From positions 17,795-81,794 of the forward strand of contig METM01000020.1 of the NCBI GenBank assembly GCA_001772335.1: a stretch of DNA of 64,000 nucleotides, read 5' to 3'. The position numbers and the translations under genes were made by a program. This document shows positions 3,067 to 11,523 of the stretch, in pieces; the first letter of the stretch is position 1; each line of letters opens with the position of its first letter. This DNA is from a candidate division WOR-1 bacterium RIFCSPHIGHO2_01_FULL_53_15. Lineage in GTDB: Bacteria; Margulisbacteria; WOR-1; O2-12-FULL-45-9; XYB2-FULL-48-7. A model generated the notes under the pieces. That model saw only the letters and a program-made list of their open reading frames with translations, ran no database searches and was not told the DNA's origin.

Positions 3067-3732
3067 CTATTTCGGGGCGTGCTTGATGACTTTGCCTTCC
3101 ACCATATAGACGACGTCTTCGCCGATATTGGTCGTGTGGTCGGCGATCCGCTCGAGATGCCTGGCGATCAGGATGAGCGGCAGAGCTCGGGAAATGGTGG
3201 ACGGGTCCTTGGTCATGATCCCTACCAATTCGTCATGGATCAGGTCGCGATAGCCGTCGGCTTTTTCCTCATCTGCCCAGAGTCCCCGCGCCATCGCCGC
3301 ATCGCGTTTGACGAAAGAGTCAAGCGCCCGGTGGACCATCTTTTCCGCCAGTTCCGCCATTTTGGGAATGTCTTCGAGCGGCTTGAGGAGCGGCTGTTTG
3401 GAGAGCTCGAAGGCGCGCAAAGCGATATCGACCGCCAGGTCGCCGATCCGTTCGATGTCCGAGGCGATGCGCATGCCGGTCGTAATAAAGCGCAAGTCGA
3501 TCGCCATCGGCTGCTGCGTCGCCAGGAGCTCCAGGCAGAGCTCATCGATCTCCAGCTCGAGCTTGTCGATCCCGTCATCTAATTTAATGACCTGATCGGC
3601 CATTTTGGCATCCGACTTCTTGAGCGCCTCGACCGAATTGAAAATGCTCTTCTCGACCATTCCCCCCATTTTTAAGATGAGGTCGTTCAACTTCGCCAGC
3701 TCCTTTTGAAAGTGCTCCCTCTGTTCTATCAT
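3067..3732 (-). CDS. phoU: Phosphate transport system regulator PhoU
   Basis: 221 aa with two PhoU repeats (DxxIDxLE, ERIGDLAVDIA, ERIADHTTNI). It lies at the 3' end of the pst operon. Confidence 0.9.
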   Translation of the reverse strand: MIEQREHFQKELAKLNDLILKMGGMVEKSIFNSVEALKKSDAKMADQVIKLDDGIDKLELEIDELCLELLATQQPMAIDLRFITTGMRIASDIERIGDLAVDIALRAFELSKQPLLKPLEDIPKMAELAEKMVHRALDSFVKRDAAMARGLWADEEKADGYRDLIHDELVGIMTKDPSTISRALPLILIARHLERIADHTTNIGEDVVYMVEGKVIKHAPK

Positions 3733-4481
3733 TAACCAAACCTCCCTGTGATGTAATCCTCCGTCCGTTTATCAGCCGGGGTCGTGAAGATCTTTTTCGT
3801 GTCGGCAAACTCGACCAGCTCGCCCAGGAGCAGATAGCCGCAATCGTCGGAGATGCGCGCCGCCTGCTGCATGTTGTGCGTCACGATAACGATAGTATAC
3901 TGCTTTTTCAGTTCGATCATCAACTCTTCGATTTTCATGGTCGCAAAGGGGTCGAGCGCCGAACAGGGCTCATCCATCAGCAGGACCTCCGGCGTGACGG
4001 ACAAAAGCCGCGCGATGCAGAGGCGCTGCTGCTGCTCGAGCGAGAGGCCGAGGGCGTTCATTGAGAGCTTGTCTTTTAGCTCATCGAACAGGAGCACGGC
4101 CGACAAACTCTTCTCCGCCGCCTCGGCCAAAACCTGTTTGTTCTTTTCGCCGTGGACGCGCAGGCCATAGACGACATTCTCGAAGACCGAGAGAGGGAAG
4201 GGATTAGGGCGTTGAAAGACCATGCCGATCCTTTTGCGCAGGGTGATCAGGTCAATTTCATGGTCAAGGATCTCCTTGCCCTCGAAATTGACGCTGCCCG
4301 ACATCCTGACACCCTCGATCAGGTCGTTCATCCGGTTAAAGACGCGCAGGAGCGTCGACTTGCCGCAGCCCGACGGCCCGATCAGCGCGGTGATCCGGTT
4401 GCGCTCGATCGCCAGGTCAACATCGATCAGCGCTTGGAATGCGCCATACCATAGGTTCAATTTGTTCGTTTTGATGATCAT
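3732..4481 (-). CDS. pstB: Phosphate ABC transporter ATP-binding protein PstB (copy 2). Walker A, Q-loop and H-loop are canonical, but the signature motif is degenerate.
   Basis: It carries [30 protein letters not shown] and VTHNMQQ. The signature reads [13 protein letters not shown] instead of [13 protein letters not shown]. Confidence 0.9.
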
Positions 4482-5230
4482 TATCCGAATCTCCCGGTAA
4501 TATAATCTTCAGTGCGCTTGTCTTTAGGCACGGTAAAGACCTGTTTCGTCTCGCCGATCTCGATCATCTCGCCCATCAGGAAGAAAGCTGTCCGGTTGGA
4601 GACGCGGGCCGACTGCTTGACGTTGTTGGTTACGAGTATCTGGGTGTAATTTTTCTTGAGCTCCTGCATCGCCTCTTCGACCTTCAGCGTGGAAATAGGG
4701 TCAAGCCCCGAGCACGGCTCATCATAGAGGATAACCTCCGGCTCGACCGCCAACGTCCGCGCAATGCAGAGCCGCTGCTGCTGCCCGCCGGAGAGTTTAA
4801 AGGCATTCGTCTGCAGACGATCTTTGACTTCATCCCAGATAGCGGCGGCTTTCAGCGATTTCTCAACGATTTCAGAGAGCCGCGCCCGGTTTTTTATGCC
4901 ATGCATTCTCGGCCCGTAGGCAATGTTGTCAAAAATGGAAAGAGGGAAAGGAAGAGGAAGCGCAAAAACGATTCCGACCCTTTTTCTCACCGAGTGTTTA
5001 TCGATCTCTTTTATTCTCACTCCGTCCAGAAGGATTTCTCCACTGGTTCTGGAATTTGGATAAAGTTCGTTCAAACGGTTCAGGGCCTTCAGAAACGACG
5101 TCTTGCCGCTGTTGGAAGGGCCGATGATTCCAAGGATATCATGCTCCTTGACCTCCAGCGACAAGTTCTTGACCGCGTGGACGCCCTCAAAGAAGACGTT
5201 CAGGTTCTTAACTTCGATTTTGTTCACCAC
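4481..5230 (-). CDS. pstB: PstB paralog (copy 1). The signature motif is intact but the Q-loop and H-loop are substituted.
   Basis: It carries [22 protein letters not shown] and [11 protein letters not shown]. The Q-loop reads [10 protein letters not shown] (Q to A) and the H-loop reads VTNNVKQ (H to N). Confidence 0.85.
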
Positions 5231-6072
5231 GTCTTCCTCTTTCTAAACCGCGCCCGGATATAAGCAGCGATAACGTTCAGAATAAAGATCATGCCGACCA
5301 GGACGAGAACCGTGCCGTATTGGATCTTGACGCTGACGCCCGGCACCTGGGTTGAGAGAACATATATATGGTACGGCAAAGCCATGGCCTGGTCATAGAC
5401 CGATTGCGGCAGGCGGGGCAGGTAAAAAGCCGCCACCGTAAAGAGGATCGGCGCCGTCTCGCCGGCGGCGCGAGAGAGCTCCAGAATGGTTCCGGTCATG
5501 ATCCCCGGCACGGCATTGGGCAGGACAACGTGGCGCACCGTCTGCCAGCGCGAAGCGCCCAGCGAATAGCTGACTTCACGAAACGAACGAGGCACGGCGC
5601 CGAGCGCCTCGCGGGTGGCGGTGATGATCACCGGCAAGCCCTCGATCGCCAGCGTCAGGGAACCGGCCAGAATTGACGAGCCAAAATTGAGAAAAATGAC
5701 AAAAAGTCCCAGGCCGAACAGGCCGTAGACGATCGAGGGAACGCCGGCCAGATTAATGATGGCCAGCTCGATCAGCCGCGTCAGCCGGCTTTTTGGCGCG
5801 TATTCATTCAGATAGATCGCCGCCAGGATCCCCAGCGGGATGGAAAAAACTGCCGCGCCCAGCACCAGGTAAGTTGTGCCAACGATAGCCGGGAAAATGC
5901 CGCCCGCCCGCATCCCCTCGCGCGGCATACTAAAAATAAATTCCAGCGAAAGACCGGGTAAGCCGCGGAACAGGACTAGCAGGACGATTAGCGCTACCGG
6001 GATGACGATCAGGATCGTGGCTGCTTGCAGACAGGCAAAAGCTATTCGCTGGGTACGATTGGTGTCTCTCAT
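5224..6072 (-). CDS. pstA: Phosphate ABC transporter permease PstA
   Basis: 282 aa polytopic membrane protein with an EAA-like loop (ALGAVPRSFREVSYSLGASRWQT). Its position in the operon fits. Confidence 0.9.
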   Translation of the reverse strand: MRDTNRTQRIAFACLQAATILIVIPVALIVLLVLFRGLPGLSLEFIFSMPREGMRAGGIFPAIVGTTYLVLGAAVFSIPLGILAAIYLNEYAPKSRLTRLIELAIINLAGVPSIVYGLFGLGLFVIFLNFGSSILAGSLTLAIEGLPVIITATREALGAVPRSFREVSYSLGASRWQTVRHVVLPNAVPGIMTGTILELSRAAGETAPILFTVAAFYLPRLPQSVYDQAMALPYHIYVLSTQVPGVSVKIQYGTVLVLVGMIFILNVIAAYIRARFRKRKTW

Positions 6073-6938
6073 CTGGCCGCCTTCCTGTGCAAAAAGAGAT
6101 CGGCCAGCAGGTTAATGACGAAGCTGATAATAAAAAGAACAATGCCGATGGCGAACAGTGCGTAATAATGCTCACTGCCGGAGACCGCCTCCCCCATCTC
6201 GGCGGCGATCGTCGCCGTCAGCGTCCTGACCGGCTGGAGTATGCTCGTCGGCAGGACCGCCGCGTTGCCGGTGATCATGAGGACCGCCATCGTCTCGCCA
6301 ATCACCCGTCCTATACCAAGCATGACGGCCGCCAGGATGCCGGACGAGGCGGCCGGCAGGACAACGCGATAAATAGTCTGCCAGTGGGTGGCCCCCAGCG
6401 CCAACGACCCCTCGCGATAGTTCTTGGGTACGGAGACGATGGCGTCTTCGATGATCGAAACGATCGTCGGCATTGCCATGAAGGCCAGCATGATCGAGCC
6501 GGCCAGCGCGGTCAGCCCGCTCGACAGGTGAAAAACCGATTTTAAAAAGGGCGCCAGGGTCACAATACCGATAAAACCGAGAACGATGCTGGGAAAGGCG
6601 GCCAGAAGCTCAATACCCGATTTGAGGATATCGCGCAATTTGGGCGGCGCCACCTCGGCCACGTAAATGGCCGACGCCAGGCCCAGCGGCACCGCGATCA
6701 CGATCGCCCCCAGTGTTACCAGGAGCGATCCCAGAAATAGCGGCAGGATACCGAAACGCGGCGGATCGGAGATTGGGTACCAGTTCTTGCCAAAAAGAAA
6801 ACCGGTTAAGCTTTCGGTCTGGAAGAGCGCCAGACCTTCCTTGAGCAAAAAGAAAAAGATCAGCACCACGAAAATGATCGAGGCGATCCCCGAAAGGAAG
6901 ATCGCCCGCTCGATCAGGAATTCGAAGGCTCTTTTCAC
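6069..6938 (-). CDS. pstC: Phosphate ABC transporter permease PstC
   Basis: 289 aa polytopic membrane protein with SLALGATHWQT. It overlaps pstA by 4 nt. Confidence 0.9.
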   Translation of the reverse strand: MKRAFEFLIERAIFLSGIASIIFVVLIFFFLLKEGLALFQTESLTGFLFGKNWYPISDPPRFGILPLFLGSLLVTLGAIVIAVPLGLASAIYVAEVAPPKLRDILKSGIELLAAFPSIVLGFIGIVTLAPFLKSVFHLSSGLTALAGSIMLAFMAMPTIVSIIEDAIVSVPKNYREGSLALGATHWQTIYRVVLPAASSGILAAVMLGIGRVIGETMAVLMITGNAAVLPTSILQPVRTLTATIAAEMGEAVSGSEHYYALFAIGIVLFIISFVINLLADLFLHRKAAR

Positions 6939-7786
6939 TTGATAGGCACAAAATCCATTTTGAGCACGACCTTTTGGCCAGCGTCGCTTAAGATATAATC
7001 AATGAAGGCCCTGGCTTCGCCCGACGGCTCGCCGTTGGTGTAAAAGAGAAGCGAGCGGGAGATCGGATACTGGCCGCTGGTCACGGTCTTAACCGAAGGA
7101 ACAACATAGGCCGAGCCGCTGTTTTTCGCCACCGCCAGCGCTTTCTCCTGCGCCGTCAAATAACCGAGACCGACATAGCCGATCGCCGATGTGTTGGCTT
7201 TAACCTCTTCGATGATCGCCTGTGAAGAAGGCATCATCAGGACAGGGGGGGCAAATTCATTGGGGTTCTTTTTTTGAGCTAGCTTGACCACATGTTCAAG
7301 GAAGAATACGTGTGTGCCGGAGTTCCTCTCGCGCGAGAGGGCGACGATCTTTGAGTCCGTCCCGCCCATCTCTTTCCAGTTCTTGATCTTGCCAGTGTAG
7401 ATATCCGAGAGCTGTTGGATCGTCAATTTGCCGACCGGGTTGGCTGGATTGACGACGATCGTGATACCGTCATTGGCCACGTGAATCTCCTGCGGGGATA
7501 TTCCTCTCTTTTTGGCCATGGCAATTTCTTTCGGTTCGATATTCCTTGATGACTCGGCAATGTCGGTCGTTCCCTGGATCATCGCCGCGATCCCGGTCCC
7601 TGAGCCGCCGCCGGTCACTGCGATCGAAATCGCCGGGTTAAGTTTCATAAAATCCTCGGCCCAGGCCTGGCCAAGGTTCACCATCGTGTCCGAGCCCTTG
7701 ATTTGAAGAGCTTTTTTCCCGCCGCCGCAGCCAGCAAGGGCAAAGGCAAGTAAGGATACCGCGAACAGAAACGCAATTTTTTTCAT
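6935..7786 (-). CDS. pstS: Phosphate-binding lipoprotein PstS
   Basis: The signal peptide plus lipobox reads MKKIAFLFAVSLLAFALAGCGGG. The rest is a PBP-like fold with SGTGIAAMIQGTTDIA. Confidence 0.9.
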   Translation of the reverse strand: MKKIAFLFAVSLLAFALAGCGGGKKALQIKGSDTMVNLGQAWAEDFMKLNPAISIAVTGGGSGTGIAAMIQGTTDIAESSRNIEPKEIAMAKKRGISPQEIHVANDGITIVVNPANPVGKLTIQQLSDIYTGKIKNWKEMGGTDSKIVALSRERNSGTHVFFLEHVVKLAQKKNPNEFAPPVLMMPSSQAIIEEVKANTSAIGYVGLGYLTAQEKALAVAKNSGSAYVVPSVKTVTSGQYPISRSLLFYTNGEPSGEARAFIDYILSDAGQKVVLKMDFVPIK

Positions 7787-7793
7787 GCTTCTA

Positions 7794-7846
7794 TTATCGG
7801 CGATGAGAATGAAGGTTTGATGACAGAAATGTTAAAAGCATGTAAA
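7794..7846 (-). promoter_or_regulatory. pstS promoter. Pho-box-like heptamer direct repeats sit at 11-bp spacing, with a -10 (GATAAT) 7 nt before the ATG.
   Basis: The minus strand reads TTTACAT-gctt-TTAACAT-tt-CTGTCAT-caaa-CCTTCAT...GATAAT-agaagc-ATG. The CTGTCAT-type repeats resemble the PhoB binding consensus. Confidence 0.45.
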
Positions 7847-8857
7847 TTATCTTGATGGAAAAACCAGCGTAAACTTCGAGCCCCGGCCGACTTCGCTCTC
7901 CACCCTGACCGAACCGCCGTGGATCTCCATGATGTGCTTGACGATCGAGAGGCCAAGTCCGGTCCCACCCTGGTCGCGCGAACGGGCCTTGTCGACCCGG
8001 TAGAAGCGCTCAAAAAGCCGTGGCAGGTGCTCGGCCGAAATGCCTGCTCCCTGATCCTTGACGCTGACTTCCATAGTTTTCTCTGCCTTGCGGCAGCCGA
8101 TCTCCACTTTGCCGCCAGCCGGCGAATAATTGACGGCGTTATCGACCAGGTTGAGCAGGGCACGATAAATGAGGTTCGCGTCCCCGAACAGGCGGCAGGG
8201 CGCCGGCCGCTCGATCATTATTGCTTTTGTCTTGAGCTTGCCGGCGAGCGTCTCGATCACTCTGTCAATCTCCTGGCCGAGCTCGACTTCGGCGAACGGT
8301 TCCAGCCCTCTCCTGGCTTCTAAGCTTGAGAGCTGGAGAAGGTCGTCGATCAGGGCGGAGAGGTTCTGTGTATTCTTATCTATCTTCTGGAGAAATTCAC
8401 GGTTGTGCGCCTGATCATTGATCGCTCCGTCGATCAGTGTCTCGACATAGCCCCTGATGGCGGTCAGCGGTGTCTTGAGCTCGTGGGAAACATTGGCGAC
8501 GAATTCGGAGCGCAGGTTTTCGAGCTTCTTGATCTCGCTGATGTCGTGGAAGATCAGCGCGATGACGGCCGGCTCGCCCTCTTCGGTTTCGATCAAGCTC
8601 ACCGAGCAGGAAAATATCTTCTCCTCGGGATAGATGACCCTGATCTCTTTCTCAAGCGGCGTATCCGCCTCTCTGGCCGCCGCGGCCAGCTCGGCTAATT
8701 CCGGCAGGCGTATTACCTCGAGTAGGCGCTTGCCGATGACGTCGCCGCGCGAGAGCGAAAAATGATCCAGGAATGATTGATTGGAGTAGATTATCCCGTC
8801 GGCGTCATCGATGACGATCGCGCCGTCGCGCATACCCGATAAGATCGCCTCAAACAT
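7847..8857 (-). CDS. phoR: Soluble sensor histidine kinase (PAS, HisKA, HATPase_c), PhoR-like
   Basis: The H-box is SHELKTPLTAIRGY, and N/G1/G2 boxes are present (DQGAGI, GGTGLGLSIV). There is no TM segment. The likely ATG overlaps the phoB stop (ATGTTTGA). Confidence 0.8.
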   Translation of the reverse strand: MFEAILSGMRDGAIVIDDADGIIYSNQSFLDHFSLSRGDVIGKRLLEVIRLPELAELAAAAREADTPLEKEIRVIYPEEKIFSCSVSLIETEEGEPAVIALIFHDISEIKKLENLRSEFVANVSHELKTPLTAIRGYVETLIDGAINDQAHNREFLQKIDKNTQNLSALIDDLLQLSSLEARRGLEPFAEVELGQEIDRVIETLAGKLKTKAIMIERPAPCRLFGDANLIYRALLNLVDNAVNYSPAGGKVEIGCRKAEKTMEVSVKDQGAGISAEHLPRLFERFYRVDKARSRDQGGTGLGLSIVKHIMEIHGGSVRVESEVGRGSKFTLVFPSR

Positions 8858-9537
8858 GGAATTTATAACCCACGCCGCGCAGGGTCTCGAGATGCCGTCC
8901 GGTTTTGCCCAGTTTATCGCGCAGGCGCCGTATGTGGACATCGACCGTGCGCGTTTCGATCGCCACGTCGATCCCCCAGACCCGGTCAAGGAGCTGTTCG
9001 CGCGAGAAGACCCGCTCTTTGTTCTCGGCCAGATAGTGAAGGAGCTGGAATTCCTTGGCCGTCAGATCGATCTCTTTTCCGGCGGACAACACGATGTGCC
9101 GGTCGGAATCGATCTCCAGGTCTCTGAACTTGAGGGTCGCCTTGGCCGGCTGGCCAACAATTGTTGGCTCATAGCGGCGCAGGATCGTCTTGACGCGGGC
9201 GATCAATTCCTTGACGCTGAACGGCTTTGTAATGTAATCGTCCGCCCCCACTTCCAGGCCGACGATCTTGTCCGTTTCCGACCCTTTAGCAGTTAGCATG
9301 ATGACCGGGATGCCGGATGTTTTGGGATTGCGTTTGAGCCGCCGGCAGACCTCCAGGCCATCCAGCCCCGGCAGCATAAGGTCAAGAATGATGAGTGAAG
9401 GGATCTTGCCCTCCGCCTGCCTTATGCCCTCATTGCCATCATGGGCCTTCATAACCTTCATTCCCTCTTTCTTGAGGTTGTATTCCAGGGTTTCGACGAT
9501 GTCTTTCTCGTCTTCAATAATGAGGATATCAGGCATA
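8850..9537 (-). CDS. phoB: OmpR/PhoB-family response regulator
   Basis: The receiver domain reads MPDILIIEDE...ILDLMLPGLDG...LTAKG. It is followed by a winged-helix domain with VWG and TRTVDVHIRRLR. Confidence 0.85.
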
Positions 9538-9558
9538 TAGAAATTATAGCTTAAAAAT

Positions 9559-9567
9559 GGTAAAATA
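9559..9567 (+). promoter_or_regulatory. Extended -10 element (TGGTAAAAT) 11 nt upstream of the hydG ATG, in the 40-bp divergent phoB/hydG intergenic region
   Basis: Sequence motif only. There is no Shine-Dalgarno sequence before the ATG at 9578. Confidence 0.3.
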
Positions 9568-9577
9568 TACATAAAGT

Positions 9578-10978
9578 ATGCCCTCATTTATCGACGAAAG
9601 TTTGATCCATGCTCTCCTCAAAGAACCAAAGTTCGCCTCGCCCAAGACAGCCGAAAATATCATACAGAAAGCGCTCATGCTCAAAGGGCTCTCCCTTGAA
9701 GAGACTGCCATCTTGCTCAACTGCCAGGACAAGCGGGTCCTCGCCAAATTATTCCGCGCTGCCCGAAAAGTCAAAGAAGCCATCTACGGCCGGCGCCTCG
9801 TCATCTTCGCGCCGCTCTATATCTCAAATTTTTGCGTCAATAACTGTCTCTATTGCGGTTTTCGCCGGGGGAACCTCGCGCTGGCCAGAAAACGGCTGAC
9901 GCTCGATGAAATAAGGGGAGAAGTCCGGGTCCTCGAAGAACAAGGGCACAAACGGATCCTGCTCGAGACGGGCGAAGAGCCGAAGGCCGGCATCGGTTTC
10001 CTGGAAAGAGCGATCAGGGCTATCTACTCGACAAAATACGGGCGCGGCGAGATCAGGCGCCTCAACGTCAACGCGCCGGCCATGTCGGTTGCGAATTTCC
10101 GCCGTTTGAAAAAGTGCGGGCTCGGAACATATCAGCTTTTTCAGGAGACCTATCACCGCGAAACCTACGAAAAAGTCCATCCCTCAGGACCAAAATCAGA
10201 TTTCATCTATCATTTATTCGCCATGCACCGGGCGCAGAAAGCGGGGATCGATGATGTGGGAATCGGCGTGCTCTTTGGTTTATACGACTATAAGTTCGAA
10301 GTTTTAGCCCTCCTCTCCCATGCCCTGGAGCTGGAGCAGCGGTTCGGCGTCGGCCCGCACACCATCTCGGTGCCGAGGATCGAGCCGGCTTCGAACGCCC
10401 CAATTGCCGGCAATCCCCCATACCCCATACCCGATACCGATTTTAAGAAGCTCGTCGCCATCCTGCGCCTGGCCGTCCCCTACACCGGGCTTATCCTCTC
10501 GACGCGCGAATCGGCCAAAATGAGGGATGAAGTGATCGGTCTCGGCATCTCGCAGATCAGCGCGGGATCAAAAACCGTCCCCGGCGGCTACAAAGCGTCG
10601 GAGAATAGGAATAGGAAGAGGAAGAAGGTTAGCGGCCAGTTTTCGATCAGCGACAACCGCTCGCTCGCCGAAGTGATCCGGGATATTTCAAAACGTGGTT
10701 ATTCGCCGAGCTTCTGCACCGCCTGCTACCGGCTGGGGCGCGTCGGTGCGGATTTCATGGATATGGCCAAGCCGGGGTTAATAAAAAACTTCTGTTTGCC
10801 CAATTCACTGCTGACCTATAAAGAATATCTGTTGGATTACGGGGATAAAGCGGCAAAGAAATTAGGAGAGAAAGTCATTAAGCGGCATTTAAAAGACATT
10901 ACAAACCGCAAGATCAAAGAAAAAACAATTGATAAACTGGCCGAACTGGAAACTGGCAACCGGGACCTGTACTTCTAG
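9578..10978 (+). CDS. hydG: HydG-type radical-SAM tyrosine lyase (the CO/CN-generating [FeFe]-hydrogenase maturase family)
   Basis: 466 aa. The N-terminal cluster motif is FAPLYISNFCVNNCLYCGF. A ThiH-like core follows. The HydG-specific C-terminal motif CTAC-x22-C (CX2CX22C) lies at FCTACYRLGRVGADFMDMAKPGLIKNFC. Confidence 0.8.
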   Translation: MPSFIDESLIHALLKEPKFASPKTAENIIQKALMLKGLSLEETAILLNCQDKRVLAKLFRAARKVKEAIYGRRLVIFAPLYISNFCVNNCLYCGFRRGNLALARKRLTLDEIRGEVRVLEEQGHKRILLETGEEPKAGIGFLERAIRAIYSTKYGRGEIRRLNVNAPAMSVANFRRLKKCGLGTYQLFQETYHRETYEKVHPSGPKSDFIYHLFAMHRAQKAGIDDVGIGVLFGLYDYKFEVLALLSHALELEQRFGVGPHTISVPRIEPASNAPIAGNPPYPIPDTDFKKLVAILRLAVPYTGLILSTRESAKMRDEVIGLGISQISAGSKTVPGGYKASENRNRKRKKVSGQFSISDNRSLAEVIRDISKRGYSPSFCTACYRLGRVGADFMDMAKPGLIKNFCLPNSLLTYKEYLLDYGDKAAKKLGEKVIKRHLKDITNRKIKEKTIDKLAELETGNRDLYF

Positions 10979-11010: not shown

Positions 11011-11286
11011 TCAGGCAGGCACTAATTCTCTTCGTCTGGTTAATTTTTTCATGCCTTCTGGGCTTAAGATCTTTAGCAACGGCACGTTAAATTGCTTGGC
11101 AAAAGTGTTCAATTCCTTGCCTGACACATGCACGGGGTTAATAAACTCAAACCCAAGAACTTTATTACGTTTGTCCAAATCGACATATATTTCATTTTCA
11201 GAATCCAGCTCAACTGTTTTACTAACCTTGCCTTCACTAACTTGAATATAAAGAAGCCCTTCCGACGCATCTAATGAAATTTGCAT
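11011..11286 (-). CDS. DUF2283-family small protein, a putative antitoxin-like partner
   Basis: 91 aa, reading MQISLDASEGLLYIQVSEGKVSKTVELDSENEIYVDLDKRNKVLGFEF, the DUF2283 pattern. It lies in an AT-rich island. Confidence 0.5.
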   Translation of the reverse strand: MQISLDASEGLLYIQVSEGKVSKTVELDSENEIYVDLDKRNKVLGFEFINPVHVSGKELNTFAKQFNVPLLKILSPEGMKKLTRRRELVPA

Positions 11287-11301
11287 CTTAACCCCTCCTT
11301 G

Positions 11302-11523
11302 TTATGCCCAATATGAAGTAATGATGAGAATAGAGCTGGCTTTCCGTAATTCGTAAACGACCCAAAGCAATTTACCATTCGTATTCCCGCATATCTTATG
11401 TCTCCCTTTTTTCTTTGCCGGGACAGAAGTAGTTTTGTTCTGTAGGGCGATTTTAATCTCGCTGATCTTAATTTTTCTTGAGCTTAATCTCTGCTTAGCA
11501 TGTGGAGTTAAACTGATTTTCAC
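11302..11523 (-). CDS. DUF4258-family small protein, a putative toxin-like partner
   Basis: 73 aa, with HAKQRLSSRKI, GKLLWVVYE and ILIITSYW, typical of DUF4258 paired with DUF2283. Confidence 0.5.
   Translation of the reverse strand: MKISLTPHAKQRLSSRKIKISEIKIALQNKTTSVPAKKKGRHKICGNTNGKLLWVVYELRKASSILIITSYWA

Follow-up and report, generated by a model that had tools for sequence, protein, structure and literature searches.

Why should a single phosphate operon encode two different PstB ATPases, neither of which carries the full consensus motif set of an ATP-binding cassette (ABC) protein? The question is raised by a 64,000-nucleotide stretch of DNA from a candidate division WOR-1 bacterium (contig METM01000020.1, positions 17,795 to 81,794 of the forward strand; hereafter, the window), in which two adjacent pstB genes lie on the minus strand, at 4481-5230 (copy 1) and 3732-4481 (copy 2), where the initial annotation had placed a tandem of PstB open reading frames (ORFs). 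The 64 kb of the window contain no gene for a further PstB-like ATPase. Judging from the motifs of the two proteins and from the linkage of their genes, we consider it probable that the two copies form an obligate heterodimer with one catalytic ATP site.

Motifs of the two PstB copies

Both products are 249 residues long and pass the curated cut-off for PstB (TIGR00972, 343.2 bits), copy 1 with 349.4 bits and copy 2 with 375.2 bits; they are 51% identical to each other. The positions of the ATP-site motifs were fixed by full-length alignment to Escherichia coli PstB (PDB 9k3x), which gave E = 5e-81 and 3e-84 and contained no more than a single gap of two residues.

In copy 1, which we call the N-type, the signature (4772-4795; LSGGQQQR, residues 146-153) is consensus. 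The Walker A motif (5096-5122; GPSNSGKTS, residues 37-45) retains Lys43 and Thr44 and has Asn instead of Gly as its fourth residue. Ala90 occupies the position in the Q-loop (4943-4972) where Gln is conserved, and the H-loop (4613-4633; VTNNVKQ) has Asn202 for His and Lys205 for Gln. The segment comprising Walker B and the D-loop (4700-4732) reads ILYDEP, with Asp170 and Glu171 retained, and SGLD, in which Gly175 stands for Ala, a change specific to the N-type. Copy 2, the E-type, has consensus Walker A (4353-4379; GPSGCGKST), Walker B and D-loop motifs (3951-3983; LLMDEP and SALD) and retains both Gln90 of the Q-loop (4194-4223) and His202 of the H-loop (3864-3884; VTHNMQQ). Its signature (4023-4046) reads LSLEQQQR, with Leu148 and Glu149 in the Gly-Gly positions. 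All these segments are on the minus strand. The full consensus set is therefore present in neither protein, copy 1 being without the Gln and the His and copy 2 without the Gly-Gly of the signature.

The alignment places the substitutions claimed in the initial annotation at the true Q-loop Gln, H-loop His and signature glycines, and the motif description given there proved right in every particular for both copies. Three changes in copy 1, all specific to the N-type, must be added to it, namely the Gly to Asn replacement at the fourth residue of Walker A, the Ala to Gly replacement in the D-loop and the Lys found three residues after the H-loop His position (H+3).

In ATP-bound E. coli PstB, each ATP is held between Walker motifs A and B of one monomer and the LSGGQ of the other, and in the complex one PstB is docked on PstA, the other on PstC (PMC12976172). 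The composition of the pockets was transferred by homology from this head-to-tail geometry, rather than taken from a model of the WOR-1 pair. On that basis, a homodimer of copy 1 would be without the Gln and the His at both sites, and a homodimer of copy 2 would have LSLEQ at both. Only the heterodimer would give a consensus site, and its other site would hold every deviation. The motif alignment and the transferred geometry together support the earlier proposal of one consensus and one degenerate composite site.

The two genes are also closely packed. The stop of pstA and the start of copy 1 overlap by 7 nucleotides (GTGGTGA), and the sequence TAATG serves both as the copy 1 stop/copy 2 start overlap and as the copy 2 stop/phoU start overlap. 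Such arrangements are a usual sign of translational coupling, to which all three junctions point.

Conservation, pairing and origin of the two types

Of the nearest homologs of copy 1 (72-100% identity), 120 of 120 combine Ala in the Q-loop, Asn in the H-loop and LSGGQ. For copy 2, L[ST]LEQ is likewise present in 120 of 120 nearest homologs, and their Walker A, Q-loop, Walker B and H-loop are canonical save for a few single-residue deviations; copy 2 itself has a 100% identical counterpart in a 'candidate division WOR-1' metagenome-assembled genome (MAG) of the Saganbacteria/Margulisiibacteriota lineage. To judge from these alignments, the substitution pattern is far beyond chance. Several contigs of equal size recur in the match lists of copy 1 and copy 2, suggesting that both proteins are encoded on the same contigs.

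The gene order was surveyed by scanning metagenome contigs with the N-type H-loop, VTNNxKQA, in back-translated form. This returned 120 loci, 97 of them with an N-type pstB. A second pstB was the next same-strand gene after the N-type in all 87 cases with downstream contig, 83 of these partners being recognized by an automatic distance filter and 4 by inspection of the loci; the remaining 10 N-type genes comprise 9 that lie within 240 nucleotides of a contig end and 1 broken fragment. The fourth residue of the partner's signature was Glu or Asp in 78 of the 78 partners whose signature was on the contig (variants were LSLEQ, LSGEQ, LTLEQ, LPLDQ, LSPEQ, LSAEK and LTDEQ), and LSGGQ occurred in none. 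Walker A, Q-loop and H-loop of the downstream partners were canonical where visible.

A scan of GTDB genomes with generic 8-residue peptides supplied a control set of canonical loci, and gives no estimate of prevalence. Among the matches listed, the ordered N/E pair was present in 4 of 79 loci (one from an uncultured bacterium, the others from MAGs assigned to Phycisphaerales, Ignavibacteriaceae and Planctomycetia), and the single-pstB loci were consensus at Gln, His and SGGQ in 75 of 75. Individual proteins taken as starting points gave the same arrangement: for two E-type proteins, one labelled Omnitrophota, the gene just upstream was of the N-type; in a Chlamydiae MAG, the N-type protein that served as query had an LSGEQ partner downstream; and a divergent N-type with the H-loop VTNNLRQA, which falls outside the scan pattern, was paired with an LPLEQ partner. 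The reciprocal pattern that the initial annotation had recommended looking for recurs, as an ordered adjacent pair, in every informative locus.

Named sources of the family include Margulisbacteria, Saganbacteria, Omnitrophota, Planctomycetes (Sedimentisphaerales, GWF2_42_9) and Chlamydiae. The ordered pair was found in Margulisbacteria/Saganbacteria (the lineage of the window), Omnitrophota, Planctomycetota, Chlamydiae and Ignavibacteriaceae MAGs, an assignment based on a few named MAG proteins and the four GTDB titles. Some family members are labelled Methanomethylicaceae archaeon, Micrarchaeia archaeon, Patescibacteria or Sulfotelmatobacter (P0108/P0157, P0037, P0095 and P0065/P0160); they come mostly from contigs that are 2-4 kb long or unverified, and binning errors are a possible source of these labels.

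The substitutions had been expected to be absent from organisms with a single pstB. This held for the 75 GTDB controls; it failed for variants of the first signature glycine and for one gene with an H-loop Asn, which is described further below. Since first-glycine variants (LSVGQ, LSIGQ) do occur in single-copy pstB, replacement of Gly148 by Leu is not diagnostic by itself; as far as the alignments go, the acidic fourth residue of the signature is the diagnostic hallmark of the E-type. Two single pstB genes with LSVGQ (L208:477-1322 and L209:831-1676) lie between a non-ABC ORF, assumed to encode a permease, and phoU, meaning that the first signature glycine can be replaced even without a partner gene. 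In another locus (L210:800-2229), a lone PstB-like ATPase has LSIGQ, the Walker B sequence ILGDES and a C-terminal extension with a weak TusA match, and is followed by a gene for an Rrf2-family regulator; it may not belong to a phosphate system.

How focused are the changes? In a comparison that covered 49 sequences of the N-type, 47 of the E-type and 93 of canonical PstB, residues were taken as type-specific when they were at least 90% fixed in a type and rare in canonical PstB. Only eight alignment columns emerged (E. coli numbering): for the N-type, Q97A and F102L in the Q-loop region, A181G in the D-loop, I205L, H208N and Q211K; for the E-type, G155E, at the second signature Gly, and M104L. 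Six of the eight (Q97A, F102L, A181G, H208N, Q211K and G155E) lie in or beside ATP-site motifs, and by homology Q97A, H208N and G155E all belong to a single composite pocket. The Lys at H+3 was partly selected for in the scanned N-types by the VTNNxKQA pattern; among the unbiased close homologs 119 of 120 also have it, as do 7 of the 9 divergent representatives of clusters. The N-type clade retains the Lys/Thr of Walker A and the Asp-Glu of Walker B, and an aromatic A-loop residue is kept in 41 of the 49 N-types.

In a neighbor-joining tree, the N-types form one clade (49/49) and so do the E-types (47/48, the outlier being an unrelated LTADA protein); a single origin of each type is likely on this sampling. 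Synonymous sites are near saturation for almost all pairs of loci. In the three closest pairs, which are informative, nonsynonymous values (pN) of 0.035-0.09 compare with synonymous values (pS) of 0.36-0.57, alike for both genes, indicating purifying selection on the copy 1 and copy 2 types.

Two complete operons stand in tandem in each of two loci, L005:1-8195 (from an Ignavibacteriaceae MAG) and L101:1-10276: first a canonical pstSCAB-phoU, whose one pstB is all-consensus, and directly after it a pstSCA-pstB(N)-pstB(E)-phoU. It is the N/E operon whose PstS, PstC and PstA are much nearer to those of the window. Together with the tandem arrangement of the operons, this suggests that the N/E system behaves as a distinct Pst subtype, which can coexist with standard Pst in one genome.

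A mixed set of motifs was seen in the locus L207:1-1160. Its upstream partner has the N-type D-loop SGLD and retains the H-loop His (IVPHSVQQA); the contig, which is cut, does not show the partner's Q-loop. In the downstream partner, whose neighbor-joining sister is the E-type clade, the signature is LSLGQ and the first Gly alone has changed. The locus is possibly an evolutionary intermediate.

The proposed heterodimer and its alternatives

According to the reading that we prefer, a single importer, PstS-PstC-PstA-PstB(N)-PstB(E), has two different ATPase subunits, one from each of the two genes, and the overlap and translational coupling of these genes would provide roughly equal amounts of the two. 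The subunits would pair head-to-tail, as in every ABC ATPase dimer, one of them committed to one membrane subunit and the other to the second, different one. The consensus pocket would be made of Walker motifs A and B, the Q-loop Gln and the H-loop His of copy 2 and the LSGGQ of copy 1, and hydrolysis in this pocket would drive transport. The degenerate pocket would combine the altered Walker A, the Ala Q-loop and the Asn H-loop of copy 1 with the LSLEQ of copy 2. Most likely nucleotide is still bound there, as the Lys/Thr of Walker A, the Asp-Glu of Walker B and, in most cases, the aromatic A-loop residue are retained; ATP hydrolysis in this pocket is probably slow or absent, and its function as a half-site would be structural or allosteric. 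On this reading each transport cycle would cost about one ATP, not two. The motif assignments, the strict pairing, the conservation and the spread over several phyla are seen in the sequences themselves; that the two proteins physically heterodimerize, that catalysis is lost in the degenerate pocket and that ATP is saved is what we infer.

The obligate heterodimer with one catalytic site is favoured because the changes are complementary, the pairing is strict and the translation of the two genes appears coupled. With the 75 consensus single-copy controls added, the complementary changes and the strict, ordered pairing also lend support to the asymmetric-heterodimer reading put forward in the initial annotation.

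Several points weigh against this reading. Copy 1 retains the catalytic Glu of Walker B and the Lys of Walker A, and some hydrolysis could occur at the degenerate site. In MRP1, mutants in which the His of the active H-loop, that of the second nucleotide-binding domain (NBD2), was changed to Asn or Gln still transported (PMC7756269). The VTNNxKQA scan samples only those N-types that have this H-loop context. In the neighbor-joining bootstrap, the support for single origins was moderate: monophyly was recovered in 26 of 40 replicates for the N-type and in 34 of 40 for the E-type, and the figures were lower when the motif columns were left out. Lastly, a lone PstB-like protein, P0339 (L214:4001-5454, also in L215), has an H-loop Asn and no adjacent partner. 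Its gene adjoins phoU, with pstSCA on the opposite strand, and the protein is heavily non-consensus, with Walker A GPPRGGKSI, Walker B LLLEES, signature LTRGQ and H-loop STNS.

The residues retained by copy 1, the frequent A-loop aromatic of the N-types and the behavior of the MRP1 mutants would all suit a heterodimer in which both sites hydrolyse ATP and the substitutions merely tune the kinetics, leaving one site slower or differently regulated. In characterised ABC proteins, however, loss of the H-loop His or changes of the signature glycines usually cut hydrolysis severely. Here several residues that come together in one pocket, the Q-loop Gln, the H-loop His and the second signature Gly (now acidic), changed jointly, along with Walker A, and were then fixed, and we regard two hydrolysing sites as unlikely. 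It is still more doubtful that the two copies avoid each other altogether and form separate homodimers with separate jobs, for instance transport versus PhoU/PhoR signalling. There is a precedent of sorts in Enterococcus faecalis, whose tandem PstB proteins are non-equivalent, although an excess of PstB2 can replace PstB1 (PMC12096839). Both E. faecalis copies are canonical, whereas neither of the homodimers considered here would have a consensus site. Moreover, the strict adjacency, the fixed order and the stop/start overlaps fit a stoichiometric complex, and separate homodimers would leave the complementarity of the changes unexplained. A Firmicutes-type duplication was also considered as a description of the pair, and was rejected because the copies of that kind, as exemplified by E. 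faecalis, are canonical.

The score of copy 1, barely above the PstB cut-off, is what one might see in a decaying duplicate or a pseudo-enzyme. Yet both ORFs are intact and under similar purifying selection, and the substitutions are constant across hundreds of sequences, which come from several phyla and range down to about 43% identity. Copy 1 has also retained exactly the LSGGQ that is needed to complete the site of its partner. Decay, as well as an origin of the pattern by chance or through an assembly artefact, strikes us as barely credible, and the pseudogene reading was rejected, being contradicted by the conservation.

Within the heterodimer with one catalytic site, the degenerate pocket might have a role of its own. 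Glu149 of copy 2 and Lys205 of copy 1 are near-invariant in their types and appeared alongside the loss of the Gln and the His. These two residues could make a contact across the interface, or could contribute to a non-hydrolytic pocket sensing nucleotide or phosphate; such a latch or sensing pocket could keep both subunits permanently engaged. That the pocket is a purpose-built regulatory or latch site, reporting for example the energy or phosphate status to PhoU/PhoR, is a speculative proposal, and we would not bet on it. If it were true, the pair would define a distinct class of one-ATP phosphate importer, found beside two-ATP Pst in some genomes, and this class may suit energy-limited lifestyles.

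How many ATP are used per cycle by the binding-protein-dependent ABC importers, and whether both sites are needed, is an old question, which has been addressed mostly with engineered half-dead dimers. If the heterodimer with one catalytic site is real, the matched pair of PstB proteins would provide a naturally occurring type I importer that has only one consensus site and is evolutionarily stable and widespread. L005 and L101, in which a one-site Pst would stand beside a two-site Pst, would then allow a direct comparison of ATP cost, affinity and regulation. There would also be a consequence for annotation, in that both genes are now called just 'phosphate ABC transporter ATP-binding protein (PstB)', a name that hides the fact that neither product likely works alone.

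Gene neighborhood and comparison with known systems

The two pstB genes belong to a co-directional phoB-phoR-pstS-pstC-pstA-pstB-pstB-phoU cluster on the minus strand (3067-9587). The curated NCBIfam cut-offs, applied to PstS, PstC, PstA, both PstB copies and PhoU, were passed by all of them. The gene for the phosphate-binding protein PstS (6935-7786; TIGR02136, 257.3 bits against a cut-off of 206.6) is followed by those for the permeases PstC (6069-6938; TIGR02138, 299.9 against 196.45) and PstA (5224-6072; TIGR00974, 279.5 against 193.45), and phoU (3067-3732; TIGR02135, 213.8 against 130.25) comes after the pstB pair. The order pstS-pstC-pstA-pstB-phoU is also seen in L002, L005, L101, L201, L203 and L204. 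The first gene of the cluster encodes a phoB-like response regulator (8850-9587), whose true start may be an internal Met, and the next a phoR-like histidine kinase (7847-8989), both named from their sequence. With the phoB-like product as a phmmer query, a match was obtained to the gene upstream of phoR-pstS in L002, and the kinase matches the equivalent gene of the same locus.

Three other features were observed around the cluster. On the minus strand at 830-2856, a 506-residue ORF resembling the large subunit of ribonucleotide reductase (Ribonuc_red_lgN plus barrel domain) lies directly upstream of an ATP:corrinoid adenosyltransferase gene, overlapping it by about 20 nucleotides; this neighbor suggests a B12-dependent reductase. 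Divergent from the pho/pst cluster, at 9578-10978 on the plus strand, is a gene for a 466-residue protein with radical SAM and BATS domains (ThiH/HydG/BioB-like). A pair of small genes with DUF2283 and DUF4258 (11011-11523, minus strand) occupies an AT-rich patch, with a GC content of 0.40 against about 0.55 around it, and looks like a small inserted two-gene module.

The initial annotation held that the asymmetry of the pair departs from the textbook picture of PstB, and the papers found agree, giving degenerate sites for exporters and for RbsA and NupO, and none for PstB. A reciprocally degenerate PstB pair was not found in the literature searched, which does not cover all journals. We judge a natural degenerate-site PstB heterodimer to be undescribed for Pst, whereas degenerate-site ABC heterodimers are in themselves known.

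The nearest structural reference is the E. coli PstB homodimer (PDB 9k3x, 9k3y and 9k3s; PMC12976172), which belongs to the same family, TIGR00972, and is encoded in the same pstSCAB-phoU context. Its subunits are identical and make two consensus sites, whereas the subunits of the WOR-1 pair differ and their deviations would all fall in one site. The tandem pstB genes of Firmicutes likewise are two adjacent genes in one pst-phoU operon. The motifs of PstB1 and PstB2 from E. faecalis are identical and canonical, and the authors of that study noted that tandem pstB paralogs had not been compared previously (PMC12096839); PstBA and PstBB of Bacillus subtilis have been modelled on the assumption of a heterodimeric PstB (PMC11466899). 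As far as the E. faecalis motifs tell, these tandems show no reciprocal degeneration, unlike the WOR-1 pair, which is reciprocally non-canonical.

A closer likeness in logic is to be found among the exporters with one degenerate site, such as TM287/288, BmrCD, TAP1/2, MRP1, CFTR and Pdr5 (reviewed in PMC7756269). In those systems, too, changes on the catalytic side of one ATPase domain and in the signature of the other come together in one site, leaving the second site consensus. The PstB pair resembles them in that two non-identical ATPases are always encoded together (in 87 of 87 metagenome cases, the four GTDB loci and the targeted look-ups) and in that, by homology, the substitutions would share one composite site and leave the other all-consensus. 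The degenerate signature of Pdr5, LNVEQ (PMC7756269), even shares with the E-type the Glu at position 4. However, the degenerate-site exporters usually lose the Walker B Glu, whereas the N-type retains it and has lost the Q-loop Gln and the H-loop His. The exporter heterodimers, moreover, have fused transmembrane domains, whereas the PstB copies are stand-alone ATPases of 249 residues that would serve, with separate PstC and PstA and with PstS, a type I importer.

Among importers, RbsA and NupO are fused ATPases with one site predicted to be non-functional; both are missing the Lys of the second Walker A, and NupO has lost its second Walker B too (PMC11466899). Each of these is one polypeptide from a different family, whereas the PstB pair consists of two polypeptides, in which both Walker A lysines are present.

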